Source: Bacillota bacterium (GTDB lineage: Bacteria > Bacillota > Clostridia > Acetivibrionales > DUMC01). From it: 64,000 nt of DNA. Of this stretch, positions 15,589 to 48,752 are shown piece by piece. Numbering within the stretch: position 1 is the stretch's first letter; every line of letters starts with the position of its first letter. The notes under the pieces are model-generated. The model was not told the origin of the DNA. It ran no database searches and saw only the letters and a list, made by a program, of their open reading frames with translations. The DNA lies in the NCBI GenBank assembly GCA_013314855.1, contig JABUEW010000001.1:24377-88376 (forward strand), in the 5' to 3' direction. A program made the position numbers and the translations under genes.

Positions 15589-15614
15589 ATATTGTTACCT
15601 CTTTTCTTATCCTT

Positions 15615-16508
15615 TTATCCCTTAATAGACCCTATCATAATACCTTTTATAAAGTATTTTTGTAAAAATGGATAAATACATATTATGGGTCCAATTACCA
15701 CAATAATCATGGCATATTTTACTTGCTGCATTACTCCAACTCCACCTACCAAAAAATCATCTATAAACTTCATATTGTTGACAAACTCATTAGATGACTC
15801 GATTAATACACGTTTTAAATACAACTGCACAGGTTGAATATTCTTGTTTGGTGCATAAATCATAGCATTAAACCATGCATTCCAGTGGCCTACTGCATAA
15901 AATAATACAAGTACCGCCAGAATAGGTTTTGATAAAGGTAACATGATCTTGAGAAAAATACTGAAATGCCCTGCCCCATCAATAACGGCAGATTCATAAA
16001 GGCTTTCAGGTATATTATTAAAAAAGGTGCGGGTAATAAATATATACCAGGCACCAACCGCAGAAGGCAAAACAACCGCCCACCGGGTATTATACAACCC
16101 AAGCTGTGTAATATTTATAAATTGAGGAATAAGTCCGCCCCCAAAAAACATTGTAATTGTAATAATAATCAACATGAATTTTTTAATTATAAAATCTCTC
16201 CTTGATAGAGGATAGGCTGCAAGCACTGTCATAGCAACATTAATTGATGTCCCAACTATGGTATACCAGAGCGTGTTATAATAAGCCAATAATAACATCG
16301 GATCATCAAGTATGTATTTGTAAGCCTGGAGAGAAAATCCCTTAGGCAACAGCCATATTTCCTGTTTGATTATATATACCGGATTACTAATTGAAGTGCT
16401 TAAAACATAAATGAATGGATATAAAGTTGCAACAAAAGCTAAAAATGCTAATACATAACATGCCCATAAAAAAACCATATCAGTTTTATTTGATTCTTTC
16501 ATGCTCAT
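15615..16508 (-). CDS. ABC sugar-importer permease (LplC/YtcP-like, BPD_transp_1)
   Basis: 297 aa, multi-TM, with the EAA-type loop ESAVIDGAGHFSIFLKIMLPLSKP. Confidence 0.85.
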   Translation of the reverse strand: MSMKESNKTDMVFLWACYVLAFLAFVATLYPFIYVLSTSISNPVYIIKQEIWLLPKGFSLQAYKYILDDPMLLLAYYNTLWYTIVGTSINVAMTVLAAYPLSRRDFIIKKFMLIIITITMFFGGGLIPQFINITQLGLYNTRWAVVLPSAVGAWYIFITRTFFNNIPESLYESAVIDGAGHFSIFLKIMLPLSKPILAVLVLFYAVGHWNAWFNAMIYAPNKNIQPVQLYLKRVLIESSNEFVNNMKFIDDFLVGGVGVMQQVKYAMIIVVIGPIICIYPFLQKYFIKGIMIGSIKG

Positions 16509-16523
16509 TACATGTTACCTCCT

Positions 16524-17450
16524 TTACCATAGTGATATTTCAGATACTTTTCTGCTAATAGCATTAGCAGTTACCAAAAATAAACAATTTATAACAGAAT
16601 TAAAAAGACCAACTGCTGCACCATAACTATATTTCAGTCCTACTAGACCCTGCCTGTATGTAAAAGTGGATATGACGTCAGCTACATTATATGTTGCAGG
16701 GTTATATAACAGGATTATTTTTTCAAATCCTACACTCATAATATTTCCTAAGTTTAAAATCAATAAAATGATTATAGTTGGAACAATCCCCGGTATTGTT
16801 ATGTAAAATATCTGCTTTAACCGGTTAGCACCATCTAATCTTGCTGCTTCATATAGCTGTTCATCAATTCCTGTTATAGCTGCAAGATAAATTATAGATC
16901 CCCATCCGAAAGATTGCCATATTCCTGAACTGATATATATAAACCTGAAATATTTAGAGTTCAATAAATAATTTTCAGGCGTGCCTCCAAAAAGCTGAAC
17001 CACCTTTGATACAATTCCAGTTTGAGGCGATAAAAAATTAACTATCATACCACAAACGATTACTACTGAAATAAAATGAGGAAGATAGCTAACAGTCTGT
17101 ACAACCTTTTTATAAGCCTTATGTTTAATCTCATTTAAAATAAGTGCAAAACCTATTGGAAAAGGAAAGCCAAAAACCAAGCCATAGAAACTTATCAAAA
17201 ATGTATTTTTAATTAGACGAAAGAAGAAAGCAGATGAAAAAAACAATTTGAAATTATCCAGACCAATCCAGGGACTTCCCCATATCCCCAGGCCCGGGTT
17301 AAAGTCCTTAAATGCAATAATAACTCCATACATGGGTTTATAATGAAAAATAATATAATATATGATTACAGGAGTTACCATAAGTAAAAGTGCCTTATCC
17401 CTTTTTGCTTTTTTAATAAATAAATTCATTTTATTACTTATATTCTGCAT
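16524..17450 (-). CDS. ABC sugar-importer permease (LplB/YteP-like)
   Basis: Has EAARLDGANRLKQIFYITIPGI. Start moved to ATG 17450 (MQNISNK...) by analogy with paralog 45220..46188 (MQNRIAL...). Confidence 0.85.
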   Translation of the reverse strand: MQNISNKMNLFIKKAKRDKALLLMVTPVIIYYIIFHYKPMYGVIIAFKDFNPGLGIWGSPWIGLDNFKLFFSSAFFFRLIKNTFLISFYGLVFGFPFPIGFALILNEIKHKAYKKVVQTVSYLPHFISVVIVCGMIVNFLSPQTGIVSKVVQLFGGTPENYLLNSKYFRFIYISSGIWQSFGWGSIIYLAAITGIDEQLYEAARLDGANRLKQIFYITIPGIVPTIIILLILNLGNIMSVGFEKIILLYNPATYNVADVISTFTYRQGLVGLKYSYGAAVGLFNSVINCLFLVTANAISRKVSEISLW

Positions 17451-17564
17451 TATAAATACATTCCTTTCACTGTGCTTCAAATATATAAACTAATTAAATT
17501 GTATTTACAAATATTTTCAGTATTATGTATTATATTTTATTTATTTTATCCAGATAATATTTAA

Positions 17565-17612
17565 GAAAGCCAAATCAGACAAGCAATTAATATACCTGCC
17601 TGATTTGGTTTC
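17565..17612 (-). terminator. Intercistronic hairpin between the SBP and permease genes (attenuator or mRNA stabiliser)
   Basis: Minus-strand RNA reads GGAAACCAAAUCAG-21 nt loop-CUGAUUUGGCUUUC. That is 14 bp with 1 mismatch and 1 G.U, followed by UUAAAUAUUAU. There is no clean U-run. Confidence 0.35.
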
Positions 17613-17658
17613 CTTTACACTTTTAAATAATTAATTTAACGTTAACTTTTACTTAACC

Positions 17659-19302
17659 TTACTTTATATTAGCCTTAAAAGCATCATAAATTTGTTGTTT
17701 AACCTTTAGAACTTCATCAATACCCATACTTTTCAGTTTGTTAACATAGGCATCAAAATTATCCAGGCTGTCAGCTCCAATAATGAAATTTACAACAGCT
17801 TCATCTCTATAAGTTCTGATATCTGCCATATACTGTTCAATAACTTTATTCTGTTCTATTGAGGAATGAGCTGCAGGAAATGCAGATACCAGATATGGAA
17901 GCCTTTTTTTCACGAAATCTATGCTGCCTTCTTTTAGAGCACCGACTCTAATAGAATCCTGCCAACTGTAATTAAATGCTTCCAACAAATAAATAAAAGG
18001 CAGAGCAGGATAAGTTCCATCAGATATTTTTACTTCATTTGGCGTTAAACCCTTTTCTTTAGATATATTTAAGACTTTATCGCTATTTATCATTTGTTCT
18101 CCGCTGATTGTGTAATGGTATCCTTCTATTCCAAGCATCAGCAGTTTTGCAGTTTCAGGATTAAATGCTAGGTTATCCAGCCATTTCATTGCTATTTCGG
18201 GATACTTGCATGCAGATGTAATAGATGCGCTGAAACCCCATGCAGGATCCTGTATGGCAAATTTATTGTATCCTTCCGGTCCCTGGGCAAAAGGCGTTAA
18301 AACATACTTATCTTCCTTTTCACCGGCAGCCATTAAAGTAGTATTCTGTACCATTGGACCAAACCCACAGGTAGCACCAATAATATTTTGAGATATCTTT
18401 GCATTCAACTGATCCCTATTCTGAGTGGTAAATTCATTGTCCAAAATCTTCTCATCATATAATTTTTTCAGCCATGCCAGTACATCCTTGAATTTAGGGT
18501 CGATATATTCAAATGTAACTTTTCCATCAGGATTTGGGAAAAAACCATCTGTGGATAATACATGTACATCCCATGCATCTGCAAAAGTCAATACCCAAGC
18601 CCACAAATCAGTGGAAAGGGGTATTTCATCCGTTGGATCTCCGTTTCCATTCATGTCCTGCTTTTTGAATTCTGATAATATTATATACCAGTCATCAATA
18701 GTTTTTGGTATTTCTCTGTTGATTTTTTTCAACCAATTTTCCCTAATCATGTAGGCAGCAGGAAAATATTGGTTATTCACTGTCGCATCTCCATAAATGA
18801 CAGGTATTGCACCATCAGGAGTACGAAGGGATGCTGCATATTTAGGATTGTTGGCAAAGTGTTTTTTTGCATATACACCTACTTTCTCAATCAAAGGTGC
18901 ATGATCAACAATAACCTTGGACTCATACAGACTCAGAATGTCTCCAACCGGAGTCAATATATCCGGCATATCTGTATTTGCAGCAATCCGCGTACCAACA
19001 ATTGTGTTGTAATCAGCTGCCGGATAAGCATCGAATTTCACCTTGATTCCTGTCCTTTTCTCAAGCTCCTGCCATACCAAAGGATAATCATTCATACTTA
19101 CATATTTAGTGTACCTGTCCATACATACAACAGTAAGAACAACATCTTCCTCAGCAACTGTACCTGGTTCACCGGTTTTTGATGTTGCCGTCTCATCTTT
19201 TTGTTTTGTTGCTACTTTTCCAATCTGACAGGCAGATAGCACAGCTGTCATTAGAAAAATAAAGCAAACAATAAACACAACTTCTCTTAATGATTTTTTC
19301 AT
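17659..19302 (-). CDS. Extracellular solute-binding lipoprotein of the ABC importer (LplA-like, SBP_bac_1)
   Basis: The track ORF extends to 19431 through the leader repeat. ATG at 19302 has an AAGGAGG RBS and gives MKKSLREVVFIVCFIFLMTAVLSACQ, a lipoprotein signal with an LSAC lipobox. Confidence 0.85.
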   Translation of the reverse strand: MKKSLREVVFIVCFIFLMTAVLSACQIGKVATKQKDETATSKTGEPGTVAEEDVVLTVVCMDRYTKYVSMNDYPLVWQELEKRTGIKVKFDAYPAADYNTIVGTRIAANTDMPDILTPVGDILSLYESKVIVDHAPLIEKVGVYAKKHFANNPKYAASLRTPDGAIPVIYGDATVNNQYFPAAYMIRENWLKKINREIPKTIDDWYIILSEFKKQDMNGNGDPTDEIPLSTDLWAWVLTFADAWDVHVLSTDGFFPNPDGKVTFEYIDPKFKDVLAWLKKLYDEKILDNEFTTQNRDQLNAKISQNIIGATCGFGPMVQNTTLMAAGEKEDKYVLTPFAQGPEGYNKFAIQDPAWGFSASITSACKYPEIAMKWLDNLAFNPETAKLLMLGIEGYHYTISGEQMINSDKVLNISKEKGLTPNEVKISDGTYPALPFIYLLEAFNYSWQDSIRVGALKEGSIDFVKKRLPYLVSAFPAAHSSIEQNKVIEQYMADIRTYRDEAVVNFIIGADSLDNFDAYVNKLKSMGIDEVLKVKQQIYDAFKANIK

Positions 19303-19325
19303 AACATATAACCTCCTTTTAAATT

Positions 19326-19393
19326 TGGAATGCATTCGAAAACTTAAACCGTTTCCGAATTCTATATTTGAGGCTTGGCATTTTTTAGCCTCG
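19326..19393 (-). promoter_or_regulatory. Leader repeat copy 1 (5' UTR hairpin upstream of the SBP gene)
   Basis: The RNA has GAGGCU-11 nt-AGCCUC and then UUCGGAAAC-GGUUUAA-GUUUUCGAA, about 20 nt before the RBS. Homologous to 22915..22985. Confidence 0.55.
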
Positions 19394-19522
19394 TAATGAA
19401 GAATATACGACTTTGAATATACAACTTTCACACAATATAAATGTCTTCCTATAAATTTAATGTAACGTTACCGATAAACCCTATTTATTTAACAATGTAA
19501 TTTTCCTCCTTTTATCCAGGGA

Positions 19523-19644
19523 ATTTATACGGATAGCTTTTTGAATTTCTAACGTTAAATTGTATTTGTAATATAACATAAAATATGTTACAAAACAACG
19601 TTCAATTTATAATTCTACAATCAGCAATTAACATTTTGTTCAAA
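19523..19644 (-). promoter_or_regulatory. Duplicated upstream region P1, including a 45-nt relic of an AraC-gene 3' end (19600..19644)
   Basis: Aligns with 25159..25286. The 45-nt cores match at 44/45. The minus-strand core reads AAA ATG TTA ATT GCT GAT TGT AGA ATT ATA AAT TGA. Confidence 0.7.
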
Positions 19645-19686
19645 AAAACAACGGCAGTGAAAGAACAGAGTTGCGTAGTTAATTTA

Positions 19687-21807: not shown

Positions 21808-22884
21808 TCATAGCCTGATAAGCTGGTACCTGTCTTTATCAAGAGGATAATTATGATATCTGATTGATTTATCTCTTGATTTTACAAAACTGGCACTGTA
21901 AGTTAGCCAATCTCCGATATTAAGTCCTTGTATCTGAAGTATCCGCCCCGGCCATCCTTTTTCATAAGAAAAATCTATCATCTCATCCATGGTTTCCATA
22001 GCTTTAAAACGCTCCCTGTTGTAATTCACATACATTACCCTGTTCATTGAGTTCAGATGGTAGGAAGAACCCCAGAAATCCGATCTAATATTTAGTGAAG
22101 GTTTCACCAGGTCCGGGTGTTGAAAATGATTTACTTCAAGGATAATTCCGTCTTCCGGCTCACGGAAGGCTATATTTTCAGACTCAAACTCAATACCCAG
22201 AGCATCTCCCTTTGAATCAGCAACTACAATATTTATTCCTTTTACACCAGAGCACTTGTATCGATTTGCATAATATCTGGCATCTTTGCAGTCGGAGCAA
22301 TACTGTGCAAAAATTCGCGTCCACCAATATAAATTTATTGTTTCAGGATTGTCTTGGAAATTAAATTTTGGATGACCGGAAGCTCCTCCTACCATCAAAC
22401 CGGCATCATTTACCGCTGTTGCAGGCGATAAAGTTATACATGACTGTATGGCTGCATATGCGTGTGGTTTCAATCCACGATGAATTACCGCACGGTCGCC
22501 CCTTTGATACCAGGACGTTACTTCCTCCAAACTGAACGGATCAATTGTGCGTAACATAATCGGACCATCATTGCGCGTCTGTATTGCAAGTGCTGAACAA
22601 CCCGTATTTCCGGTAGAGTAAATCTGGGTGAAATAAGCTTCTTCAGGGCTTAATCCTGCAGCAGCACCAAAGGCCTCCACCTCTTCTATCAGCTCTGGAA
22701 ATTCCCTCTTCATAAATACAAAATTCTTTCTGAAATATGGAGATTCAAAGGAATCATTAGTCTTCCAGTATTTTTTCAATACCTCTCTTACCATTTCAGG
22801 TGAATTTTCCCCCAACAGCCTTCCCCTGTTTGAAGAATCTCCTGTAAGTTCAATGACTTCAACCAACGGTACTTCGTTATTCAT
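21808..22884 (-). CDS. Peptidase C45 / acyl-CoA:6-APA acyltransferase-like Ntn hydrolase
   Basis: 358 aa. Has an N-terminal GDSSNRGRLLGE and a candidate Cys nucleophile in YSTGNTGCSALAIQ. Confidence 0.55.
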   Translation of the reverse strand: MNNEVPLVEVIELTGDSSNRGRLLGENSPEMVREVLKKYWKTNDSFESPYFRKNFVFMKREFPELIEEVEAFGAAAGLSPEEAYFTQIYSTGNTGCSALAIQTRNDGPIMLRTIDPFSLEEVTSWYQRGDRAVIHRGLKPHAYAAIQSCITLSPATAVNDAGLMVGGASGHPKFNFQDNPETINLYWWTRIFAQYCSDCKDARYYANRYKCSGVKGINIVVADSKGDALGIEFESENIAFREPEDGIILEVNHFQHPDLVKPSLNIRSDFWGSSYHLNSMNRVMYVNYNRERFKAMETMDEMIDFSYEKGWPGRILQIQGLNIGDWLTYSASFVKSRDKSIRYHNYPLDKDRYQLIRL

Positions 22885-23271: not shown

Positions 23272-23988
23272 TTATATTTTACCGGATATCTTCCCTGAAG
23301 GTACTACTGCTATAACCCGGCACGGCGATGCACAGGATTTTTGAATCTTAAGCGGCATAACTATCATCTTTATCCTTGGTACAGATATTTTTGTTAAATT
23401 TACAAGGGGAGCTAAAAGAAGCGTTCCTGACTCAAAAAACATGTGTGCCCAATACTTTTTATCATTAGGATCCTGCCATGAACTCATATCCGAACCAAGA
23501 ATACTGCACTTGTGTTTTACAGCATATTCTACTGCACTGTAACTAAAGTGGGGAGAGTCGTTCAAATCCTTATGTTCAAGAAAATTAAAGCCTGTAGAAA
23601 TAATTAATGCTTCACCCGGGCTGACTTTCTCATTAACCCTTGACATTTCATTCTCAATATCTTCTACTGTCACAATTTCATTTTCTCTACGGGGAATTTG
23701 AAGGACCACTGCTGAAACAAATAAACGATCCAATCCTACTTCGTTTATCTTTTCCATCTCAGGATGAAGATGTGCTCCTGTTTCAAGGTACGTCGAAACC
23801 TGTCCGCACATGGAAATATGCTGGGAGTATGTCATGAAACCACGTTCTTTTGCGCGGGAACTTAAGTCCAGTTCACTAATATGAACTGGTGGAAACAACT
23901 CCCTGCATATTGTCATCCCTTCATCAACACCTGCACCCAAATCAACCAGTTCACCCATATCCCATATTTCATTTAATTTTAATATCAT
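23272..23988 (-). CDS. Putative cyclase / arylformamidase-like protein with a degenerate motif
   Basis: Start moved to ATG 23988 (GAAGGAG RBS). LETGAHLHP stands where the cyclase family has HxGTHxDxPxH. This is a weak call. Confidence 0.35.
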   Translation of the reverse strand: MILKLNEIWDMGELVDLGAGVDEGMTICRELFPPVHISELDLSSRAKERGFMTYSQHISMCGQVSTYLETGAHLHPEMEKINEVGLDRLFVSAVVLQIPRRENEIVTVEDIENEMSRVNEKVSPGEALIISTGFNFLEHKDLNDSPHFSYSAVEYAVKHKCSILGSDMSSWQDPNDKKYWAHMFFESGTLLLAPLVNLTKISVPRIKMIVMPLKIQKSCASPCRVIAVVPSGKISGKI

Positions 23989-24025
23989 TTTAACTCCTTC
24001 TTTAAGCATATTTTGTTATAATATT

Positions 24026-25060
24026 TCATTTATCTAAATTATTTAATATAATAACCTGCCCGCTTTTAGCTGACTCAACCACAGCCCGTGCAACCTCTAC
24101 TGCAGCCCGGCAATCCTGGGGTCCGGCACCTGATGGCTTTCTTCCCTCCTGGATTGCCGATGCAAAATCTTCAATCTCATCTCTTATAGGAAATATAAGT
24201 TTTCCATAAAGATTCTCGGCACTATATGGACTAAAATATGTTGTTTTCCCCGAACCCCAGAAGGAATAATCAGAGCCTGGGTCCGTAAATTGGATAGTGC
24301 CATCTGTACCTATTACTTCCAATCTGTGATCCATAACTACAGGAGCACCCTCCGGTATATGAAAAACCTGTTCCATTGTTCCAATAACACCATTTTCCAT
24401 TTTCAATATAACCATCCATGTATCTGCAAACGGTAGACCTAATAGGTTCCTGGATTCAGCAAATACTCTGGTTACCTTGCTTCCTGTAATCCATAAAAAA
24501 AGGTCAGTAGTATGAATTCCCGGTTCTATTATCAGCTCCGGTATATTTCCCTGATAACGGGGTAGTGAAAGGTTGGGTGGTCTACCATTACGTCTTGATG
24601 CTATTGATACTATCTTTCCTATTTCACCGCTTTCCACCATGCTTTTAATTTTTACAAAATTTGGAATATAGCGGTTAATGTAACCTACCAGAACAATTAA
24701 ACCTTTTTCCCCGGCAAGCCTTATTACTTTGTCATGGTCTTCCAGATTTGCACTTAACGGTTTTTCAACAAATACATGTTTGCCATTTTTCAATGCTTCC
24801 AAAGTTATATCTGCATGCCTAATTGCCTCTGTAATAATGCATACTGCATCTATATCCGGCAATTGCACTAATTCCCGGTAATCTTGATAAGTATTTTTTA
24901 CACCATACTTGCCGGCAATTTCCTGAAGTCTAGCTTCATTTCTGGAACAGATTGCCGAAAGCTCCATTCTTGGGCTATAATGTATTATGTTAGCATATTT
25001 TTCCCCAAAATTACCCAATCCTATAAGTCCAATTTTAACCTTGTTTTTATGTATATTCAT
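24026..25060 (-). CDS. Gfo/Idh/MocA-family NAD(P)-dependent oxidoreductase
   Basis: 344 aa with KIGLIGLGNFGEKY and HVFVEKPL. Confidence 0.85.
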   Translation of the reverse strand: MNIHKNKVKIGLIGLGNFGEKYANIIHYSPRMELSAICSRNEARLQEIAGKYGVKNTYQDYRELVQLPDIDAVCIITEAIRHADITLEALKNGKHVFVEKPLSANLEDHDKVIRLAGEKGLIVLVGYINRYIPNFVKIKSMVESGEIGKIVSIASRRNGRPPNLSLPRYQGNIPELIIEPGIHTTDLFLWITGSKVTRVFAESRNLLGLPFADTWMVILKMENGVIGTMEQVFHIPEGAPVVMDHRLEVIGTDGTIQFTDPGSDYSFWGSGKTTYFSPYSAENLYGKLIFPIRDEIEDFASAIQEGRKPSGAGPQDCRAAVEVARAVVESAKSGQVIILNNLDK

Positions 25061-25067
25061 TAAAAAA

Positions 25068-25131
25068 TACCTCCGTTCTTTTCCTTTATCCCTTAATTGA
25101 ATCTATCATAATACCTTTTAAAAAGTATTTT
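25068..25131 (-). pseudogene. Relic of an ABC permease gene: last 15 codons plus the downstream RBS region
   Basis: Positions 25086..25130 read K Y F L K G I M I D S I K G * on the minus strand. The intact permease 15615..16508 ends QKYFIKGIMIGSIKG*. Nucleotide similarity continues into the spacer before the next start codon, as at 15596..15660. Confidence 0.75.
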
Positions 25132-25158
25132 AAGTATTTTCATTCTTTCATCTATTGC

Positions 25159-25286
25159 ATTTATACAAACAGCTTTTTGAACTGTTAATATTGAATTGCA
25201 TTTATAATATAATATAAAACTAAAACAGGCTTAAAAACAATGTTCAATATATAATTCTACAATCAGCAATTAACATTTTGTTCAAA
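25159..25286 (-). promoter_or_regulatory. Duplicated upstream region P2 (copy of 19523..19644)
   Basis: See P1. The core is 25242..25286. A third, diverged copy of the core (about 82% identity) is the real 3' end of the AraC gene at 25295..25340. Confidence 0.7.
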
Positions 25287-25295
25287 TAATAACTG

Positions 25296-27620
25296 TCAAT
25301 TTATAATTCCATAATCAGAGTTTAACATTTTTTTATATTGTCCGGGAGTCATATTTTCATTCTTCTTAAACTGCCTTCTGAAGGTAAGGTCATTTGAAAA
25401 TCCTGATTTTTCTGCTGCATCTTTAATACTTTCACCTCTTAATAAAAGCTGCTTGGAATACTCAACTCTGATTTTATTTATATACTCTAGAAATGTATAC
25501 CCTGAATGATTCTTCATATATCTGCATAAATATTGTGGAGTTACATTTAAGCTCCTGGCAACTTCACTCAGAGTTAGCTGAGTATTTGTAAAATTTTCCT
25601 GTATAAAGTTAACAATTCTATTCCATAACTCAAGTCTTTTACTCTCGTGATGCATTCTTATATGTTTACAAACTTCCGAAAAAACATTTTCAATACTTAC
25701 TAGCATTTTGTTTATACTGTTAATTTCTTTAAAATCTGAAAATTTGTAACCAATATTGTATTCGACATTCATATTTTTTAAAGCTCTATGAGCTAGACAT
25801 AAAAAACTATACATCATATGCTGAATCACAAAAACATTAATATTATCAGGATTAATACTGTCATTAACTGCCTTCTCACACAATTCATAGGCTTTTCTAT
25901 CTTCTCCCTGCATTAATAATTCCAAAATTTCCCGTCCTGTGTATTCAGGTATATAATAAAAAATCTTATTTTGTTTATCTTCCTTAGAATAGATAAGTAT
26001 AGGACACTTTTGGAAATCTATAGTGTTTTCAATAATTTCCTGGCAGTCCTGAAATGACAAATAAATATTCTGTAAATTAGATACTACACGACCTATGGCA
26101 ATAGCCTGTACATTATTATTCATAAGATTAATATGATTTTCTTCTATACATTGTATTACCTCTTTCTTTATATCATTACCTTTTGTATCCTTTAAATTTA
26201 CTACCATTACTGTTTTTAATAAGTCAATATCAATAAAAAACACCGCCATATCATTTCCTAAGAATTTACTCTTTAATTGATTTTTAATTATTTCATTCAT
26301 AGGGAGTTTCTCATATTTCAAAAACATAACACAAATAAAGAAATCATATGGGAAGAAAAGTCCGACAGTATCCATATCATTTTGCAAATTATCAATCGAG
26401 AGAATATTTCCGGTGATAATTTTTCTTAAAACATAATTCATCAAAATCGGCCTTACTTTTTGAATTTCTGTTTTTAAATATAAATTATTTGATACTATCA
26501 TTTTAATATTTTGCTTCAAGAAATGATATTCATCTGAGGATGACATATTCAATGATTCTAAAGTTTTACTATCAAAAAAAATATTCATGATGTCATATAC
26601 TGGTTCAGAATTCATTTTAGCTAAAATAAACGAAATGATTAAACCAAATAACAGAATTATTGTAAGAATCATTATAGTTTGTATCATAATCGGTTTTGTA
26701 TTATACATTATAGTAAATCTGGGTATTATGGAAATATATTGTAAATCATAAAACTTAGATTTTTGGGAAAACAAAATATATTTTTCATTATTGATTATGA
26801 TTTCATTTTCATTTAATATTCTTCCCTCCAAAATTCCATGAATCAATTCTAATTTTTTTTCATCATTTAATCCATTACTACTAGAAAAAATACAATTCCC
26901 ATGAGAGTCTACCAACATATTTATGCCAAATTCCATAATTGTTCCTTTATGTAATATTGATTCTAAACTATCCCTGTTAATAAGAAAAAGGCACCTGCTG
27001 TTACTATTGTTCTGAAAAGTGGGCATTTTTTTGCTGTAAATTACCAAATTTGTGATAATACCCATAAAGTTCACCTTTGAAACCGGTACAAAATAAGACT
27101 CTTCCTCTACATTCATAATCATATTTTCTCTGCTTTTATCTAAGAAAAACAAAACATCCTTAAAAAAATCTTCTTGACTGCATCCACCCCAAGTCGAGAA
27201 ATAAAGATCATCCTCTATAAATTGGATAACAATGTGTTGAACTAAATCATTGTTTGCAGCAGCAACCCCTAATTGATTTTTACAATTATTTATTGTAGTA
27301 ATATTATTTTTTAACTTTTTAACACCTAGATTTCCAGTTTTAATAATTTTACTTATTTCTCCAACTTGAGAAAACTGAACAACAGTATTTATAATATCCT
27401 TCATTTTATTATCAAGTTCTTTTACACTTTCCTTCATGATATTGCTGTATTGTGTCTTGTTTTGTGTGACAATAGAATTTAGCAAATTGTTATAATTTAA
27501 AATGCCAATAACAGTTAAAGGTATACTGAACAACAAAGAGTAGGATATTAGAGTTTTCAAAAACAACGGTTTTTTGAATTGAAGAATTAAGCTTTTAACT
27601 CTATATATGACTTTATTCAT
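25296..27620 (-). CDS. Membrane-anchored AraC-family one-component sensor/regulator
   Basis: 774 aa. Two TM segments (LISYSLLFSIPLTVIGILNY and IMILTIILLFGLIISFILA) flank an extracytoplasmic domain. The C-terminal HTH_18 region reads LSEVARSLNVTPQYLCRYMKNHSGYTFLEYINKIRVEYSKQLL...FSNDLTFRRQFKK. Confidence 0.85.
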   Translation of the reverse strand: MNKVIYRVKSLILQFKKPLFLKTLISYSLLFSIPLTVIGILNYNNLLNSIVTQNKTQYSNIMKESVKELDNKMKDIINTVVQFSQVGEISKIIKTGNLGVKKLKNNITTINNCKNQLGVAAANNDLVQHIVIQFIEDDLYFSTWGGCSQEDFFKDVLFFLDKSRENMIMNVEEESYFVPVSKVNFMGIITNLVIYSKKMPTFQNNSNSRCLFLINRDSLESILHKGTIMEFGINMLVDSHGNCIFSSSNGLNDEKKLELIHGILEGRILNENEIIINNEKYILFSQKSKFYDLQYISIIPRFTIMYNTKPIMIQTIMILTIILLFGLIISFILAKMNSEPVYDIMNIFFDSKTLESLNMSSSDEYHFLKQNIKMIVSNNLYLKTEIQKVRPILMNYVLRKIITGNILSIDNLQNDMDTVGLFFPYDFFICVMFLKYEKLPMNEIIKNQLKSKFLGNDMAVFFIDIDLLKTVMVVNLKDTKGNDIKKEVIQCIEENHINLMNNNVQAIAIGRVVSNLQNIYLSFQDCQEIIENTIDFQKCPILIYSKEDKQNKIFYYIPEYTGREILELLMQGEDRKAYELCEKAVNDSINPDNINVFVIQHMMYSFLCLAHRALKNMNVEYNIGYKFSDFKEINSINKMLVSIENVFSEVCKHIRMHHESKRLELWNRIVNFIQENFTNTQLTLSEVARSLNVTPQYLCRYMKNHSGYTFLEYINKIRVEYSKQLLLRGESIKDAAEKSGFSNDLTFRRQFKKNENMTPGQYKKMLNSDYGIIN

Positions 27621-27732: not shown

Positions 27733-29034
27733 CCCCCTGATTTTTTATAGAATTATAATGTAAGGGCAAGAATGACTATTACACCTGCCTAAGGTTGCTG
27801 TTGCCTTTTTTAAGCTTATATATATTCAGATTGTCAAGGAGCATTCCGTTGGAGCAGCTTTTTAGGGTGTCATAGTAGTTCTCATTTTCTTTTTTCTTGT
27901 TTTTCTTTGCTTCTTTCCAAGTGTATTTTTTATACCCTTATCTCTAATGCCTTTGCTGTTCCTGAAATCGTAGCCATATAAAATTCCCTTGGGCTCATGT
28001 AGAATATCGATGAGTGTATCCTGCGTATGTTATATCTGTCTATAAATTCAATCACTTCTCTATATCCCTCTTCGTACTTTTCAAATTTCCACTTTCCAAG
28101 ACATTCATCCTCAAGTATTCTATGAAAAGCTTCTATATGAGCATTTTTATCCGGTGTTTTACAGGGTATCCTCACATGTTCTATATTCAGTTCCTCACAC
28201 CTGCTCTCAAAAGCATGGCTTATAAACTGTAGCCCGTTATCTGTCCGTATTACCGGCTTATCCTCCTTTTCATACAAGTTCCTGCGCATTAATGCCCTCT
28301 ACAACATTATGACAGCATCACTGCCTTCACAGCTTAAGCCTATATGGTAATCAACCACCATCCTGTCATACACATCGATTATTGATAATATGTAGAAAAA
28401 CCTGTCTTCTCCGGCTATCTAACCGTACTTGATGTCCGCTTCCCATAATTGGTTCACAGCTGTTACTATTCGATTCTTCGCAAGCTTTCCTGGATACTTC
28501 GGTTTTATTTCCCTCTGAGGTTTTAGTATTCCAAGTTCTTTACATAACCGGTAACCTTTTTCTTGTTTATTATAAGTTTATATTCCTTTCTTAAAGCTAT
28601 GGTAAGCTTATAACATCCATAGCTTAAGCCGTCTCCTTCACTTAATTCCATGATCCATTCTTTTATTTGTATGTCGCATACTATTCTTCCATCAATGGTA
28701 TATGAATAGCCAGGTATAGGCCTCCCTCCATTTTGTTCCTTTTCCTCACCTCTCTTGGTTCTTTTATTAGGCTTGAATCCTTCTTCAATCCCTTTTTTGT
28801 CATTTTTTTCATTGGCTCTTGTTTTTTTGTACCCGCACCCATCTTGCTACTATTTACTGGCTAACATTATACTTCCTTCCGACAACACTGCAATCCTCAG
28901 TTTCAGTGGCTTCCTTAATGACTTGCTTCTTAAATTCCTCTGAATGTTTCCGTACTCTCATATTTTTTTCCCCTTTGCTTACTTTTTTATTATATAAGCT
29001 TTGGGTCTAATTGTCCAAATAGATTAGGGGGCTT
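27733..29034 (-). mobile_element. Decayed IS3-family element (orfA/orfB with stops and frameshifts); ends approximate
   Basis: orfA starts near 28955 as MRVRKHSEEFKKQVIKEATETEDCSVVGRKYNVSQ*. The orfB pieces read ...NQLWEADIKYG*IAGEDRFFYILSIIDVYDRMVVDYHIG...* and there is an rve-core fragment at 27930..28289 (DNGLQFISHAFESRCEELNIEHVRIPCKTPDKNAHIEAFH). Candidate imperfect terminal repeats are CCCCCCTGATTTTTT (27732) and the reverse complement of AGATTAGGGGG (29031). Confidence 0.6.
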
Positions 29035-33890: not shown

Positions 33891-34619
33891 TCAGTTCCTT
33901 AATATTTTTATAATATTTTTATAGAAAATCTTCTCCTGTACTTGCTCCGGTAGCTTAAGTTCCAGAATCTTCTTAATTTCATGAGTCTGATGGGATCTGG
34001 GCATATTTGAACCGAATATTACCCGGTCTTCGCCGGCAGCTTGAATTAGCCCCAGTATTGCACTGGATAAATTATGTGAGGTATCAAGGTAAATATTTTC
34101 CCGGGATTTAGCTGCATAGGCTGTGTCTGTCCAGAAATCGGTGTTCCCTGAATGGCCCATAATAAAATTAACTTTGGGGAAATCATCTGCCAGCTCAGCA
34201 AGCTGGAAAGGTTCGGAAGTAACCATGGTGCCTGTATGAAAATATACAGGCACCATATATTCTTCAACTACCTTTATTAAAGGTTTAACAAGGTCACTAT
34301 TCAGTATGAACCCCTGTAATTTGGGGTTTAGTTTCAACCCGCGCAATCCTTTATCAAGATATTTTTTTAATATTTCAACAGCCTTATCAAGATACCACGG
34401 GTTAACTGAAGCAAAACCAATAAATCTGTCCGGATACTTATTAACTAGATCCAGTATATACCTATTTCCTTCTTCATTATATACAGCTATATACTGCTCT
34501 ATAGGTACAATAACGCACTTTTCGACCTCATTTTGGTCCATCAGCTCAATCAGTTTTTCAGGGTCAAGCGCTTTTTCAAAGCCTTTACCTACATGTACAT
34601 GGGCATCTATTTTTTTCAT
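33891..34619 (-). CDS. Amidohydro_2-type metal-dependent hydrolase
   Basis: Start moved to ATG 34619 (MKKIDAHVHVG). Has FIMGHSG and VIFGSNMP. Confidence 0.75.
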   Translation of the reverse strand: MKKIDAHVHVGKGFEKALDPEKLIELMDQNEVEKCVIVPIEQYIAVYNEEGNRYILDLVNKYPDRFIGFASVNPWYLDKAVEILKKYLDKGLRGLKLNPKLQGFILNSDLVKPLIKVVEEYMVPVYFHTGTMVTSEPFQLAELADDFPKVNFIMGHSGNTDFWTDTAYAAKSRENIYLDTSHNLSSAILGLIQAAGEDRVIFGSNMPRSHQTHEIKKILELKLPEQVQEKIFYKNIIKILRN

Positions 34620-34655
34620 ATTTTTTATTCCCCGCATATAAATATTTTACTTAAA

Positions 34656-42624: not shown

Positions 42625-44193
42625 TTACTTTTTAGACCTTTCATGTTGTGCTTTTACAATGTCCATAATCTTTTCAATACCCATTTCCCGCAGTTTTTTA
42701 CCAAATTGTTCATAATTTTCAAGGGGTTCGTCACCAATTATGAATTTAATCTTCATTTCTTGGAGGTAGGTATCAAGGTCTTTACTTACTTGGCTAACTA
42801 TCCTGTCTTCTTCCTGTGTACGCCTTACATACATCCATGACTGTAATGGTTCTAAATAATTCATTATTTTGTCAATTTCAACCCTGTCATCAGCTAATCG
42901 GTACTTATTTGCTACTTTCATACTTTGCCTGTTGGATATATTAAGCCAGCAGCCTATAGACCATAAAGTATCTTGCGGACTCAACCCGTCAGGATTTTTT
43001 AGTACAAAATCTGTGTACTTGTATTCATTACCTTCAATTTTATACGATAGGTTTTCAATGCCGTAATTGATTAAGTTGAAGCCTTCTTCACTTGCCCATA
43101 CAAAATCAAAGAACTTCATGGCCACTTCCGGTTTTTTGCAGAATTTTGTTATTTTAGCTGCTCCGGTCTGGTAATTAAACTGTTTGTAGAATTTTTGCCT
43201 TCCATAGGGTCCTTCCAGTATTGCTATTGTATATTCCGCATTTGGATCAGAAGCCTTAACCTGGCTGTACAACCAGCTTTTGCTCCATGGATACCAGGTT
43301 ATACCTCCTACTTGATTATTGCTTAGACGTGCTACTAAATTATCATAAGACATATTGATAATTTCCCTGTCAAACACATTTTCCTTCCACATCTTATTGG
43401 CAAACTGCAGATAAAGCTTCCCTCTTTCCTCTAAATAGTCATACTCTACTTCACCATTATCATTTATACTATAGAAGCCCTGAGACATATGCATATGCCA
43501 AATATTTGACAAAAATTCAAAATAATTACTGCTGCAAGCATATACCTCATCTTTCTTGCCATTACCGTTTGCATCCTTTTCCTGGAAAGTCTTTAGAGCT
43601 GCCAGGTATTCTTCAGGAGTTTTCGGCACAGGAATATTCAATTTGTTAAGCCAGTCTTTTCTTATCCAGTTTGCCTCAAGAGAAGGAAAATCATCCAAAA
43701 CATATGGAAACTCATACATCTTGCCGTCCTCAAAGGTCATAAACTTCTTAAGCTCGGGTCTTTCCTTCAGAAGCTTAACAATATTGGGAGTATTATCACC
43801 TATAAGGTGGTCAAAGCTTATTACCAGCCCCCTGTCTATAAGGTCAACAAGATTTCCTCCCATGATTATATCCTCGAGTTGTTGCCCTGCCGCATATTTA
43901 GTGTTAGCTACAGTATGAAATTCAGACGCTGGGAGGACAACCCATTTAATTTTGATATTAAGCCTTTTTTCGATTTCATCTATTACAGGTAGTTCTCCTG
44001 AAGCATAGCTTTTTGGCGTATACCAGTTATCCCATGTAAAAATGCTTAATTCCTCCGGTGGAGTCTTGGTATCTCCTCCTTTATCAACAGCTGTTTTATC
44101 CCCAGCTTTTTCCCCATCCTTCTTGGAACATCCTGTAAATGATAGGGAAAGAATCATAACAAGACATAGTAGAATAACTAAAAGTTTTTTCAT
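42625..44193 (-). CDS. Extracellular solute-binding lipoprotein (ABC importer 2)
   Basis: 522 aa. MKKLLVILLCLVMILSLSFTGCS is a signal peptide with lipobox. Confidence 0.85.
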   Translation of the reverse strand: MKKLLVILLCLVMILSLSFTGCSKKDGEKAGDKTAVDKGGDTKTPPEELSIFTWDNWYTPKSYASGELPVIDEIEKRLNIKIKWVVLPASEFHTVANTKYAAGQQLEDIIMGGNLVDLIDRGLVISFDHLIGDNTPNIVKLLKERPELKKFMTFEDGKMYEFPYVLDDFPSLEANWIRKDWLNKLNIPVPKTPEEYLAALKTFQEKDANGNGKKDEVYACSSNYFEFLSNIWHMHMSQGFYSINDNGEVEYDYLEERGKLYLQFANKMWKENVFDREIINMSYDNLVARLSNNQVGGITWYPWSKSWLYSQVKASDPNAEYTIAILEGPYGRQKFYKQFNYQTGAAKITKFCKKPEVAMKFFDFVWASEEGFNLINYGIENLSYKIEGNEYKYTDFVLKNPDGLSPQDTLWSIGCWLNISNRQSMKVANKYRLADDRVEIDKIMNYLEPLQSWMYVRRTQEEDRIVSQVSKDLDTYLQEMKIKFIIGDEPLENYEQFGKKLREMGIEKIMDIVKAQHERSKK

Positions 44194-44331
44194 GATTTTT
44201 TCATCCTCCTTAAGATTAATAAATTTTAAATTTACGGTTAAATTATCTTGTTACAATTGCTGTGTTCTTTTCACCCCCTTTCAGTTCATATGTACTATTC
44301 CCCCTTTCAGCGATAGCCAAATTATTAATTT

Positions 44332-45204
44332 TTACCCCTTGATTGAACCTATCATAACCCCTTTTACAAAATATTTCTGAAGAAAAGGGTACACACAAAT
44401 GATAGGTAATATTGTAATAATTATTGAAGAATACTTGAGTTGTATACCATACGCTGCCCTTTCGTAACTTGAACCGGGTAAATCTCTTTGTACTTCAGCT
44501 GAAACCTCAATAAGTATACGTCTTAAGTAAATTTGTAATGGATGCTTACTCGCATCTGAAATAAATATCATAGCAGAGAAAAAGCTATTCCAGTGTCCAA
44601 CCGCATGAAAAAGTATTAACACAGCCAGTATAGCTTTAGATAGTGGAAGGTATATGCTTGTTAGTATTTTTAAATCACCTGCCCCATCAATTATTGCCGA
44701 TTCCTCAAGGCTATCTGGTATTGACTGGAAAAATGTCCTAGTAATTATAATATACCATGCGCTTACAGCTCCCGGTATAACTATTGCCCATCTTGTGTTA
44801 TACATCCCAAGCGTTGAAACTAATATATATAGAGGTATTAAACCTCCTCCAAAAAACATTGTAAAGGATATCATTATCATGAAGAAGTTCCTATGTATGA
44901 ACCGCTTTTTAGACAAAGGATATGCTGCAATAACAGTCATTATAACATTTATAGTTGTTCCAACAACTGTATACCAAATTGTATTATAATATGACTGCCA
45001 AAACATCTTATTTCTAAATACAATTTTAAATGATTCCAACGAAAATCCCTTGGGTAAAAGTAATATATTTTGCTTCATTACTTCTTCTACTGAACTTATC
45101 GACATACTAAAAACATATATAAACGGATACAAAGTTATAAAAGCAGCAAAGCTTAGTAAAATATAAATAATTACTTCAATAGCTTTATCAGATAACTTTT
45201 TCAT
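44332..45204 (-). CDS. ABC sugar-importer permease (LplC-like)
   Basis: 290 aa. Has ESAIIDGAGDLKILTSIYLPLSK and a C-terminus KYFVKGVMIGSIKG. Confidence 0.85.
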   Translation of the reverse strand: MKKLSDKAIEVIIYILLSFAAFITLYPFIYVFSMSISSVEEVMKQNILLLPKGFSLESFKIVFRNKMFWQSYYNTIWYTVVGTTINVIMTVIAAYPLSKKRFIHRNFFMIMISFTMFFGGGLIPLYILVSTLGMYNTRWAIVIPGAVSAWYIIITRTFFQSIPDSLEESAIIDGAGDLKILTSIYLPLSKAILAVLILFHAVGHWNSFFSAMIFISDASKHPLQIYLRRILIEVSAEVQRDLPGSSYERAAYGIQLKYSSIIITILPIICVYPFLQKYFVKGVMIGSIKG

Positions 45205-45219
45205 TCTCCTCCTCCATTC

Positions 45220-46188
45220 TTACCATAGAGATATTTCGCTTACCTTTTTACTTATTTTGTTTACTGTTATTAAAAGTATAAAATTCACTACAGAGTTAAA
45301 TAAGCCTACTGCACTGGCAAAGCTGAACTGTGCATTAATAATACCTGCCCTGTAAACATATGTTTGAATAACGTCTGCAACCTCATAAGTTGAAGGGTTA
45401 TACATCAATATTATTTTTTCAAAGCCAACATTCATCATTTGTCCCAGAGATAAGATCAACAGTATAACTATTGTGGGTAATATTGAAGGTATAGATATGT
45501 TTACAATTTTTCGAAATCTTCCGGCCCCATCTATTTCTGCAGCCTCATATAAATTTGGATCTATTCCGGATAATGCCGCTATATATATTATTGAACTAAA
45601 ACCAAAACCTTGCCAAATTCCCGATGCCACGTATATTGTACGGAACCACTTCTTATTCATCATGAAATGGATAGGCTCATACCCTAATTTCTCTAATAAT
45701 ATATTAATAATCCCGCCACTTGGAGATAGAAAATTAACTATCATACCAACTACTATAACAGTAGAAATAAAATATGGAAGATAGCTCGCGGTTTGAACAA
45801 ATCTTTTGAAAAAACCATTTCCGACTTCATTAAGTAATAGTGCAAATATTATGGGTACCGGAAAGCCCCAAATAAGGCTGTAAAAACTAAGCAGAAACGT
45901 ATTTCTTAATAAACGGAAAAAATACACGGATGAAAAAAATTCCTTAAACCACCTAAACCCTACCCAATTTTGAGTTAAAAAATCGTATAAATTTGAAAAA
46001 CCTTTAAAGTCTTTAAAAGCAATTAATATTCCTATCATAGGTAAATAATGAAATATCACATAATATATAATAACAGGTAAAAATATTATAAGCAATTGCT
46101 TGTTTTTCCCAAGTCTTTTAAAATAAGTATCTTTTTGTGTTGCATTAAATTCTTGTACAGATTTTCTTAATGCTATTCTATTTTGCAT
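45220..46188 (-). CDS. ABC sugar-importer permease (LplB-like)
   Basis: 322 aa with EAAEIDGAGRFRKIVNISIPSI. Confidence 0.85.
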   Translation of the reverse strand: MQNRIALRKSVQEFNATQKDTYFKRLGKNKQLLIIFLPVIIYYVIFHYLPMIGILIAFKDFKGFSNLYDFLTQNWVGFRWFKEFFSSVYFFRLLRNTFLLSFYSLIWGFPVPIIFALLLNEVGNGFFKRFVQTASYLPYFISTVIVVGMIVNFLSPSGGIINILLEKLGYEPIHFMMNKKWFRTIYVASGIWQGFGFSSIIYIAALSGIDPNLYEAAEIDGAGRFRKIVNISIPSILPTIVILLILSLGQMMNVGFEKIILMYNPSTYEVADVIQTYVYRAGIINAQFSFASAVGLFNSVVNFILLITVNKISKKVSEISLW

Positions 46189-46361
46189 AATGATGCATCC
46201 TCATCCTTTCCTGTTATCTGGGCAAAAAGAACCCTCCTACGGCTAATGAAAGGCTAATCATACCTATATACCTATTATTAATTCACATCTCAATCATAAT
46301 CATAATATCTTATGGGAAAAATGTAAACATACTATTAATTTTCGGCATACATTTTTTTACT

Positions 46362-48752
46362 TCAGGCCTGTAGTCTCGTTTTTAAGCAGTTGTTCTCCCT
46401 ATATTGAACTGGTGTTTTAAGCTCATACTTTTTAAACACCCTTCTAAATGTAACATCATTTATAAATCCAACTTCTAAAGCTATGTCTTTAATAGTCAGG
46501 TTTTCAACGGCTAATAGCTGTTTTGCCTTTTCTATTCTTTTCTTGTTAAGGTATTCTGAAAAATAAAGGCCTGTATTTTCTCTAAAAAATCTACTCAAAT
46601 AAGAATTTGAAAGGCCAAATTTTGAAGCACAAAGATTTAGGGAAAAATTACTATCAAAACATTTCTTATCTATCTCATCCAGTATGTCTTTAATAAGTGA
46701 TTGTGCAAAACTCTCATTCTTGCTCTTTATTTCTTCACAAATCCCTCTGTACATTTTTTTAATATAATCCATCATTTCTCCAAACGTATTCAACAGCAAA
46801 AGATCCTGCGAAACTATACTGTTGTCCAGGTTAGACAGGTTTAATTCCTGCAAAGCCTTTAAAGCAGTTGCTTGAAGATCATAGAACAAGAATCTCGCAA
46901 TTGCCAAATCCGGATTTTGTTTTTTAAGGTTCTCTTCTATTATACTGTCAAGAATTTCTTCTATTTTATCAAAAGCAGCAGACTTTAAACCTTCTATCAA
47001 AGCAAGCTCCTTATCAAGGGGATAGTAATAATGCAAGTTAGTTTCCCTATTACATATTTCATTATAAGCAATAACACTGCTTTTACCTTTTATAAGTTTG
47101 AAGTTCAAAGCTTTTTGGGCTTCTTCGTATGATTGATTTATCCCTTTAAAAATATTATAAGTGTTTCCTATACCTACAGTAATTACAATATCATACTTGT
47201 CTTCTATTTCTTCCTTGATTTTTCTCAATATCTGGTTTATATTGGGCTGCTTAACTACAAAATCAGAATCTAGCAAAGCAGACGAGTTGTTAATATTCAT
47301 AAGTACTGCTATTCTATAACGTTCCATCTCAACAACATAACTTGTGCATTTCAGGGTAATTAAAACACTTTCCAGCATCTCTTTTATAATCAGAATAATT
47401 TCAGGCATAACACAGTAGTCCTTTTCATTATTTGCTTTATTATAATTCTCCTTTTTATAATACTCTATTTCAAAAATAGAAACTTTATAATAACTGTACG
47501 GTAGAGATATTCCATACTTCAAAAAAATATCTTTCTGGTCTGTGTTGTATTCTACATTTCCCTTCAGTAAATTTATAATAAGATTATTTTTTTGAATATA
47601 GTTATACTTTTGCATTTCAAGCTGCATCAAATTTTTCTCATTTCTCAACTTTTTAATACAATTCTCAATAACTTCAAACTCCGATCTACATTCGTGTTTC
47701 GAATAACTATAATCGTCGTCTTTTAATATTGTAAATATAATTTTTCTTAGTGGGTCAAGAGATTTTCTTGTAACAAGTAGTACCATAATTAATGCAAACA
47801 CTATAGCTGAAATAAATACAGCAGTAAATATTTCCTTGAAGTACCCTGCTTTTTGCGTTATTAAGCTCAATGGTACTACAGCAACATATTCCAACTCATT
47901 TATATCCGATGGTATATGATATATTATATAATCCAGCCCTTCTATTTTATCCCTGAAAACATTAGTACTTCCCGTATATAAGTAACAATTGCTATTACCC
48001 TTAAAGTAAGGCAAATTCCCATGAGATACAACAATTTCATTCTTTTTGTTTAAAATATATATATTAAAATCACCTTTTGAATTAAAACTATTTAATAACT
48101 CAATTATACTGTTTGTTTTGGTAAGAATAATTAATGATGCAGCATAACACTTATTATACTTATACGAAGATGCAATACCCTGGATATATGCCATAGAATC
48201 GTACCTGCGTCCAAGATACGTAACTTTAAGATTCGAAATTATTTGAGAATCTTTATCGTTTTTTTGTAAAACATCTAAATTAAGCATATCCTTGTTTTCA
48301 ATTTCAAATATATTATTAAAAAAGTATTCTGCTTCTTCTTTTCCGGTAGGAGTAAGAATTAAACTCTCATTGTCCAAATACACAAATATTTCATCTATAA
48401 AACTGTTCACACTTTTAAAGGAAGCCAGTTCTTCAAACATAGTCAGAAAGTCTATCATACTAATTCTGCTGTAATCTATGCCTTCTCTCATATGTATTAC
48501 TTTATTAAAAAGCCTGTTTCCGCTCAATTGCATATTTAGCTTGTTAAACTCTTCAAATCTATTATCGATACTATTCTTAATACTGTTGATCAAGGTTAAA
48601 TGAAACTTTTCAGCTTCTTCTTCAATAATTCGGACTGCTGTATAATATATCATTAAACCTATTATGGAGATTGTTATTATGGACAAAGTAAAGTACGCGG
48701 TAAACTGTTTTATGAATGTTTTTTGTCCATACAGCTTTTTATAAAGCATCAT
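46362..48752 (-). CDS. Membrane-anchored AraC-family one-component sensor/regulator 2
   Basis: 796 aa with two TM segments. The C-terminal region reads LCASKFGLSNSYLSRFFRENTGLYFSEYLNKKRIEKAKQLL...FINDVTFRRVFKK. Confidence 0.85.
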   Translation of the reverse strand: MMLYKKLYGQKTFIKQFTAYFTLSIITISIIGLMIYYTAVRIIEEEAEKFHLTLINSIKNSIDNRFEEFNKLNMQLSGNRLFNKVIHMREGIDYSRISMIDFLTMFEELASFKSVNSFIDEIFVYLDNESLILTPTGKEEAEYFFNNIFEIENKDMLNLDVLQKNDKDSQIISNLKVTYLGRRYDSMAYIQGIASSYKYNKCYAASLIILTKTNSIIELLNSFNSKGDFNIYILNKKNEIVVSHGNLPYFKGNSNCYLYTGSTNVFRDKIEGLDYIIYHIPSDINELEYVAVVPLSLITQKAGYFKEIFTAVFISAIVFALIMVLLVTRKSLDPLRKIIFTILKDDDYSYSKHECRSEFEVIENCIKKLRNEKNLMQLEMQKYNYIQKNNLIINLLKGNVEYNTDQKDIFLKYGISLPYSYYKVSIFEIEYYKKENYNKANNEKDYCVMPEIILIIKEMLESVLITLKCTSYVVEMERYRIAVLMNINNSSALLDSDFVVKQPNINQILRKIKEEIEDKYDIVITVGIGNTYNIFKGINQSYEEAQKALNFKLIKGKSSVIAYNEICNRETNLHYYYPLDKELALIEGLKSAAFDKIEEILDSIIEENLKKQNPDLAIARFLFYDLQATALKALQELNLSNLDNSIVSQDLLLLNTFGEMMDYIKKMYRGICEEIKSKNESFAQSLIKDILDEIDKKCFDSNFSLNLCASKFGLSNSYLSRFFRENTGLYFSEYLNKKRIEKAKQLLAVENLTIKDIALEVGFINDVTFRRVFKKYELKTPVQYRENNCLKTRLQA

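Follow-up and report, generated by a model that had tools for sequence, protein, structure and literature searches.

How did the short gap behind a regulator gene come to hold the two ends of a transporter cassette that stands complete elsewhere on the same contig? The question is raised by a 64,000-nt stretch of an uncultured Bacillota bacterium (contig JABUEW010000001.1 of assembly GCA_013314855.1, positions 24,377 to 88,376; hereafter the window), in which the gene of an AraC-family regulator is separated from a Gfo/Idh/MocA oxidoreductase gene by 235 nt. We argue here that this gap is probably a composite control region left by an old rearrangement of duplication and loss, and that a 47-nt motif within it is most likely the operator of the regulator. 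The genes and gaps concerned are listed below in order of transcription, which is on the minus strand for all genes in this part of the window. The true start of the gene for the substrate-binding protein (SBP) is the ATG at 19302, which gives a protein of 547 aa and a gap of 384 nt before it and corrects an earlier, sequence-only reading of the window.

27620..25296, minus strand: AraC-family regulator, 774 aa, Pfam HTH_18
25295..25061, minus strand: IG-A, gap between AraC and Gfo/Idh/MocA (235 nt), site of the scar
25060..24026, minus strand: Gfo/Idh/MocA oxidoreductase, Pfam match
24009..23272, minus strand: cyclase, Pfam match
22884..21808, minus strand: AAT-like gene, Pfam match, ortholog in the related contig L004
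21675..19687, minus strand: GHL10-like gene, Pfam match, ortholog in L004
19687..25060, minus strand: the four-gene enzyme block between the repeats (Gfo/Idh/MocA, cyclase, AAT-like, GHL10-like; Pfam)
19686..19303, minus strand: IG-B, gap between the GHL10-like gene and SBP (384 nt)
19302..17659, minus strand: SBP, Pfam SBP_bac_1, 547 aa as called in public data
17480..16524, minus strand: first permease, Pfam BPD_transp_1
16508..15615, minus strand: second permease (LplC-type), Pfam BPD_transp_1
15596..19302, minus strand: intact transporter cassette SBP-permease-permease-spacer (Pfam; spacer 15596-15614)
Starting at 15588, minus strand: Amidohydro_2 gene after the second permease

Both ends of a transporter cassette in one gap

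The regulator-proximal part of the gap is a copy of sequence upstream of the SBP gene. Positions 25136-25289 match 19500-19647 with 78.6% identity over 154 columns (blastn E 5e-33). The significance of similarities was judged by local alignment scores against dinucleotide shuffles alongside the blastn E-value, and for this pair a score of 151 stands against 23.9 +/- 3.2 in 500 shuffles (z = 40). The longest exact run measures 37 nt (25250-25286, equal to 19608-19644), and a 43-nt core contains a single mismatch. Identity is uneven along the copy, with 53/56 in the part that holds the motif and 65/84 in the adjoining promoter segment (Fisher p = 0.008); the better-kept motif would fit constraint.

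The other part of the gap corresponds to the opposite end of the cassette. Positions 25068-25131 align with 15596-15660, the 3' end of the second permease gene and its spacer, at 57/65 with one gap (E 3e-17, z = 22). The coding part of this relic reads KYFLKGIMIDSIKG, and the permease at 15615..16508 reads KYFIKGIMIGSIKG. The relic is without a start codon, an in-frame TGA lies four codons upstream, and the similarity stops at 25131; with its partial similarity and incomplete frame it is a pseudogene fragment of a CUT1/LplC-type permease. The permease at 15615..16508 is its nearer match, ahead of a third paralog at 44332..45204 (85% over 46 nt). The homology ends 8 nt ahead of the Gfo/Idh/MocA ATG at 25060, and the spacer with its ribosome-binding site now serves that gene.

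25136..25236, minus strand: P_A, putative promoter/leader segment, homologous to 19500-19594 (65/84 ungapped, z = 19)
19500..19594, minus strand: P_B, putative promoter/leader segment, homologous to P_A, ending in AAAGGAGG and then a 4-codon TTG open reading frame
25085..25131, minus strand: relic of an LplC-type permease 3' end, 14 codons plus stop, 43/47 identical to 15614-15660
25068..25084, minus strand: spacer with GGAGG ribosome-binding site, 14/17 identical to 15596-15612

The sequence-only reading had noticed both copies. The first, given there as 25159..25286 and 19523..19644, holds with the wider bounds above, and the second (25068..25131) is borne out at 14 codons plus the stop; both similarities lie far above what shuffling yields for AT-rich DNA. 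The promoter homology ends and the permease homology starts only 4 nt apart (25132-25135). Motif and P_A represent the left end of the 4,052-nt cassette 19647..15596, and permease end and spacer its right end, with order and orientation kept and 3,839 nt of the interior missing.

A further duplication concerns the leader of the SBP gene:

19318..19391, minus strand: leader hairpin element just upstream of the SBP ribosome-binding site (blastn E 5e-10, z = 18)

A 78% identical copy of this 74-nt element lies at 22905-22975 (minus strand), just upstream of the ribosome-binding site of the AAT-like gene. Both copies fold into a hairpin of 10-12 bp (z -3.0 and -3.4). Their 5' arms differ at two positions (C to U, G to A) where G-U pairs preserve the stem, a pattern to be expected of an RNA structure. 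The level of identity, 77% in the promoter segment, 78% in the leader-hairpin pair and 91% in the relic, whose partner is coding, would fit one old event.

A 47-nt motif next to the regulator

Relatives proved very scarce. The only informative related locus found is L004, a 6-kb JGI contig (3300065951, Ga0617746_268), and the comparative evidence rests on it. It encodes orthologs of the GHL10-like protein (63% identity), the AAT-like protein (66%, opposite strand), AraC (51%) and SBP (68%), with the SBP start 165 nt after AraC. A search for AraC homologs gave one ortholog, and a search for SBP homologs gave none above 34% identity; SBP homologs are labelled 'aldouronate transport system substrate-binding protein' at source. 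The search for Gfo homologs reached 60% identity at best, on short contigs, and the scan of genome contigs with the Gfo protein gave only an unrelated 23% match. Metagenome scans yielded 0 matches with the degenerate motif and only HTH-level matches with the AraC alignment.

When the conserved core was aligned with the L004 intergenic regions, four motif copies were found there, every one non-coding and all in tandem pairs. Scores in the following list are those of a position weight matrix (PWM) built from the four L004 copies only.

25289..25335, minus strand: copy a1, overlapping the last 11 AraC codons and the TGA stop; PWM 15.8
25237..25283, minus strand: copy a2A, the 'core' of the sequence-only reading, probable operator; PWM 19.8, the highest in the window; nhmmer E 2e-3
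19595..19641, minus strand: copy a2B, single, with no a1-like partner upstream; PWM 19.3; nhmmer E 1e-3
5254-5300 and 5307-5353 of L004: motif pair between the AraC stop and the SBP start
2674..2628 and 2622..2576 of L004: motif pair upstream of the divergent AAT-like gene

The seven copies in two genomes all lie in or at intergenic regions flanking AraC or neighbouring operons and follow the 47-nt consensus ..aATGTTAat.g.tGA.T.t..aAtTAtaaAtTGA... Copies a2A and a2B agree in 45/47 positions, and pairwise identity among the seven is 26-37 of 47, where 12.7 would be expected by chance. The matrix was scanned over both strands of the window, with 100 Markov-shuffled windows as the null. Copies a2A, a2B and a1 are the three best hits and the next scores 1.6; the null maximum has a mean of 3.1 and a largest value of 13.1. 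The same three copies rank on top in nhmmer. Tandem spacing is 52 nt between a1 and a2A, 53 nt on the SBP side of L004 and 52 nt on its AAT side, in agreement with a repeat finder. Upstream of the AAT-like gene of the window neither PWM nor nhmmer gave an extra copy, and a gapped resemblance around 23180-23222 was not recovered. The motif is repeated upstream of the regulator's neighbours and conserved in the orthologous locus of one relative, as would be expected of an AraC-family operator. This pattern, the cross-test with the L004 matrix and the tandem spacing argue that the motif is most likely the operator of the adjacent regulator, and the core probably one of its sites.

The regulator itself belongs to the AraC/XylS family, with HTH_18 at residues 688-764 (E 1.5e-19) and a match to HTH_AraC (E 4e-10). 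Two N-terminal hydrophobic stretches can be read from the translation, and the protein is presumed to be a membrane one-component sensor. Both the HTH_18 domain and the homology to the L004 ortholog (P0016, 51% identical) end at K764. Beyond that residue, motif copy a1 itself encodes the last ten residues, MLNSDYGIIN, and supplies the TGA at which the frame stops. The last residues of the L004 protein are ...TPGQFNKRYVK*; from there it is about 10 nt to the first 47-nt copy and about 17 nt to the ATGTTA block of that copy. A tail outside HTH_18 and a motif that is non-coding in L004 argue that the AraC frame of the window has run into a regulatory repeat, and that the repeats are not decayed gene ends. 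A second AraC gene (796 aa, 46362..48752) was considered as source of the cores and dismissed, as its product shares only 21% identity and the sequence downstream of the gene is unrelated. It belongs to a second regulator-transporter cassette at 42625-48752 (minus strand), whose genes come in another order (AraC of 796 aa, permease, permease, SBP) and in which the motif is absent.

Upstream of the AraC gene lies gene debris, namely a 119-aa integrase-core (rve_3) fragment at 27930..28289 and a 76-aa cupin/AraC_binding fragment at about 29033-29263, both on the minus strand. In L004 the divergent AAT-like gene, together with tandem motif copies of its own, takes this position. The AraC gene has a GC content of 24-28%, well under that of the flanking enzyme and transporter genes (33-42%).

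Putative promoters can be placed by eye at TTAACA-17-TATAAA in P_A and TTAGAA-17-TATAAA in P_B; in L004 a candidate pair, CTGACT-17-TATATT, overlaps the second motif copy at its end. The 3' half of the motif recurs in part at 25180-25201 (resembling 25291-25312), across the -35-like hexamer of P_A. P_A also contains an exact 12-nt direct repeat, TATAAATGCAAT on the minus strand, at 25154-25165 and 25195-25206, 41 nt apart, and one of its copies forms the -10-like TATAAA. Where the A/B homology ends (19492-19511, minus strand), a strong AAAGGAGG is followed by TTG and the 4-codon frame MLNK*, which may be the remains of a former gene start. The 108 nt past P_B have no match elsewhere in the window or in L004. 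Rfam covariance models gave no match at E<=1 in 15000-28500. A miniature inverted-repeat transposable element or other small mobile repeat was rejected as identity of the 154-nt segment, which has only two copies in the window and, by inverted-repeat search, no terminal inverted repeats.

Duplication, loss and the competing histories

In L004 the AraC gene directly precedes SBP, and this SBP is the ortholog of the one that survives at 19.3 kb in the window. The adjacency points to AraC-then-transporter as the ancestral layout, with the transporter originally at the scar, which supports the sequence-only reading on this point. The cassette, consisting of motif, promoter, SBP, two permeases and spacer, would have sat directly behind AraC, as in L004. 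A copy would then have arisen downstream of the GHL10-like gene, taking only one motif copy along, and the original next to AraC would have lost 3,839 nt of its interior. Since L004 has the cassette next to AraC, the gutted copy would mark the original site and the intact one would be derived. As the net outcome, the transporter and the four enzyme genes would have swapped places, each unit keeping a motif-plus-promoter module, and the regulator would, through the motif, drive both the Gfo-cyclase(-AAT-GHL) and the SBP-permease units. Two events, a cassette duplication and then the interior loss beside AraC, form the most economical account; their order, like the binding of the regulator, is what we infer.

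The order of the enzyme genes differs between the two genomes as well. The AAT-like and GHL10-like genes lie upstream of AraC in L004 and downstream of it in the window. The L004 GHL10-like gene (2-1417, plus strand) ends about 160 codons earlier than in the window, and it converges on and overlaps the AAT-like gene (1407-2564, minus strand). Between these genomes the two genes have changed their arrangement relative to each other.

This account modifies the earlier one in several respects. A deletion of about 4 kb had been proposed, and the collinear cassette ends 4 nt apart with 3,839 nt missing agree with it; the two independent regulator-transporter units that were part of the proposal do not stand, because the surviving SBP is the ortholog of the SBP beside AraC in L004, which argues for relocation. 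The supposed loss of an AraC gene at 19.6 kb finds no supporting evidence, and the history of SBP would rather be one of relocation by duplication and loss. Gfo and cyclase had been thought to come under the promoter through the deletion. If both already stood behind the permease, the deletion would only have made them promoter-proximal, not newly promoter-controlled.

Several observations weigh against our account. L004 is the only related locus, and since it ends 213 codons into SBP it does not reach what follows the permeases. The order permease-then-Gfo occurs in no relative; the nearest Gfo homologs (52-60%) have cyclase or amidohydrolases upstream, and in four loci (L005, L006, L007 and L012) Gfo is linked to cyclase and amidohydrolases and no permease precedes it, which speaks neither for nor against an ancestral permease-Gfo junction. 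Behind the intact cassette stands an amidohydrolase gene whose ribosome-binding site lies inside the duplicated spacer, which a simple insertion of the copy downstream of GHL fails to explain. The leader duplicate is likewise unexplained by the deletion and hints that a whole regulatory region may once have been copied before AAT-GHL. The uneven identity between the A and B copies could stem from gene conversion instead of selection. Cross-genome nhmmer E-values are modest (1e-3 to 0.17), and scans for consensus promoters and terminators did no better than on shuffles, being uninformative in AT-rich DNA.

In the complete model of the sequence-only reading, the cores are decayed AraC 3' ends, an AraC gene was lost at 19.6 kb, a separate cassette was deleted at 25 kb, and Gfo and cyclase came newly under promoter control. 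The cassette-end relics on which it builds are real, and the cores do share frame and stop with the AraC tail. KMLIADCRIIN* stands beside KMLNSDYGIIN* (though the A copy in fact reads ...IIY*), and the AraC 3' end (25288-25334) matches the core in 38/47 positions (E 9e-7; z = 11 against IG-B, 8.7 against IG-A). The triplication thus stands as a similarity but not as one of gene ends. A relic of the AraC 3' end was rejected as the nature of the core, since P0016 stops before the motif, so that two L004 copies lie after the AraC stop, and since the motif also occurs upstream of the L004 AAT-like gene, opposite to the AraC orientation and far from the AraC 3' end. The L004 protein has no tail, and the tail in the window lies outside HTH_18. 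The 52-nt spacing kept by the AAT-side copies A1 and A2 suits a functional site better than decayed gene ends, and so does a motif that can still be recognised between genomes with protein identities of only 50-68%. No AraC-like coding remnant exists upstream of 19647, where the GHL10-like stop is 39 nt away, and the surviving SBP is orthologous to the one next to AraC in L004. We therefore regard this model as quite improbable.

An insertion instead of a deletion is the more serious rival, even though we rate it as unlikely. A block of permease end, spacer, Gfo and cyclase, later joined by AAT and GHL, would have recombined into the gap between AraC and SBP, and no full second cassette would ever have existed at 25 kb. 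The route, to which we give no better chance, might be a circular or tandem intermediate with a crossover within the motif-promoter segment that duplicated the 154-nt segment on both sides; just as doubtfully, the permease fragment would have come along with Gfo from an older junction of the two. Direct repeats do bracket the 5,488-nt block, and the 53/56 patch beside 77% flanks resembles a crossover or conversion tract. The leader hairpin of the AAT-like gene copies the SBP leader at equal divergence (78%), which suggests that the regulatory region was duplicated before AAT-GHL; remnants of insertion sequences (IS) flank the locus, and in L004 AraC has AAT and GHL on its opposite side. However, an insertion needs as many events or more, plus a duplicated permease 3' end, it leaves the collinear cassette order and the 4-nt abutment of the relics as coincidence, and the 108 nt that separate P_B from the hairpin have no homologous counterpart near the AAT copy. 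An assembly artefact, in which the true chromosome runs AraC-motif-P_B-SBP and the 5.6-kb segment is a separate circle or was misthreaded at a repeat node, seems very improbable to us. A separate Logan assembly of the same run (SRR6186653) does break in the repeat, with contig L001 ending at 25257, L003 starting at 25279 and L011 starting at 19637 (25279-5642), and the alternative pairing reproduces the L004 layout. But with only 37 nt the exact repeat falls short of ordinary read lengths and of the larger k-mers used in metagenome assembly. The breaks are consistent with a short k-mer (k=31 assumed), at which they are expected, and do not argue against the AraC-P_A join of the metagenome-assembled genome. 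Moreover, the 5.6-kb block has no replication or mobility genes, and the fusion of P_A with the permease relic lies inside the single Logan contig L003 and is hence unaffected. Duplication followed by interior loss is thus the best explanation, not the sole one.

Neighbouring genes, known systems and meaning

On the far side of the intact cassette, the amidohydrolase gene (14863-15588, minus strand) contains one in-frame TAG at 15016-15018, and its similarity to a paralog at 33891..34637 runs 50 codons past it to 14863 (42.6% over 242 aa). The TAG is a nonsense mutation, a pseudogene mark or a sequencing error; truncation by the neighbouring IS was rejected, as the single in-frame TAG interrupts the gene instead. 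This IS (13105-14649, plus strand) encodes a 514-aa DDE_Tnp_1 transposase and has 45-48% GC against 33-40% around it. Logan contig L011 ends inside it, which suggests further copies in the genome. A distant relative (L006, 361-3003, 52% identity) combines genes for Amidohydro_2, Gfo/Idh/MocA and cyclase, in L007, a second distant locus, Gfo and cyclase are joined by a 377-395-aa protein, and paralogs of these partner genes cluster at 33-36 kb of the window (33118-35852). This suggests a single common pathway, as yet uncharacterised.

Activators of the AraC/XylS family bind repeated sites, such as araI1-I2 of E. coli AraC and the multiple MelR sites at melAB. The motif resembles these in being AT-rich, repeated in direct orientation upstream of putatively regulated promoters and next to the regulator gene, in its spacing of whole helical turns (52-53 nt) and in the partial copy near a -35-like hexamer. 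It differs in its 47-nt unit and 52-53 nt spacing, compared with 17-nt half-sites at 21 nt, and in that one copy lies inside the coding tail of the regulator; it is a candidate site, and the regulator is a large, presumably membrane-anchored form rather than a soluble AraC.

In aldouronate clusters of Paenibacillus, an AraC-type regulator is followed by genes of an LplABC-type (CUT1) transporter. An AraC-type regulator followed by ABC-transporter genes is usual in Firmicute glycan loci, for instance Blautia producta bp1315-bp1318 (PMC10318527). The regulator-SBP-permease-permease layout with nearby enzymes in L004 and in the window cassette 48752..42625 is of this kind. Unlike these loci, the locus described here has four enzyme genes between regulator and transporter, and the regulator-proximal site holds only the cassette ends. 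As at other operon junctions with gene remnants, a short 3' gene fragment is kept with a downstream ribosome-binding site, and a duplicated promoter region flanks the rearranged block; the case is unusual only in that, at about 20% divergence, the lost unit can still be recognised at both ends. The scar is real and statistically solid, and it is a new instance of well-known processes that poses no challenge to current understanding.

A broader interpretation can be offered only tentatively. The motif might be an undescribed operator of a small lineage of membrane-anchored AraC sensors, and the genome might have enlarged the regulon by placing duplicated control modules ahead of relocated genes. 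These modules would be the motif-promoter segment before Gfo-cyclase and SBP and the leader hairpin before the AAT-like gene, and as a side effect the AraC frame would end in its own operator. The 5.5-kb enzyme block between 154-nt direct repeats (37-nt exact core) could moreover be lost or amplified by recombination. On our main reading the locus is a worked example of an operon that was reordered with every part keeping a control region, and the consensus given above is a candidate operator for an uncharacterised membrane AraC-type sensor of an uncultured Firmicute. For annotation it carries a caution, in that a repeat overlapping the last codons of a gene may be a regulatory site that the frame has entered and not the relic of a gene.

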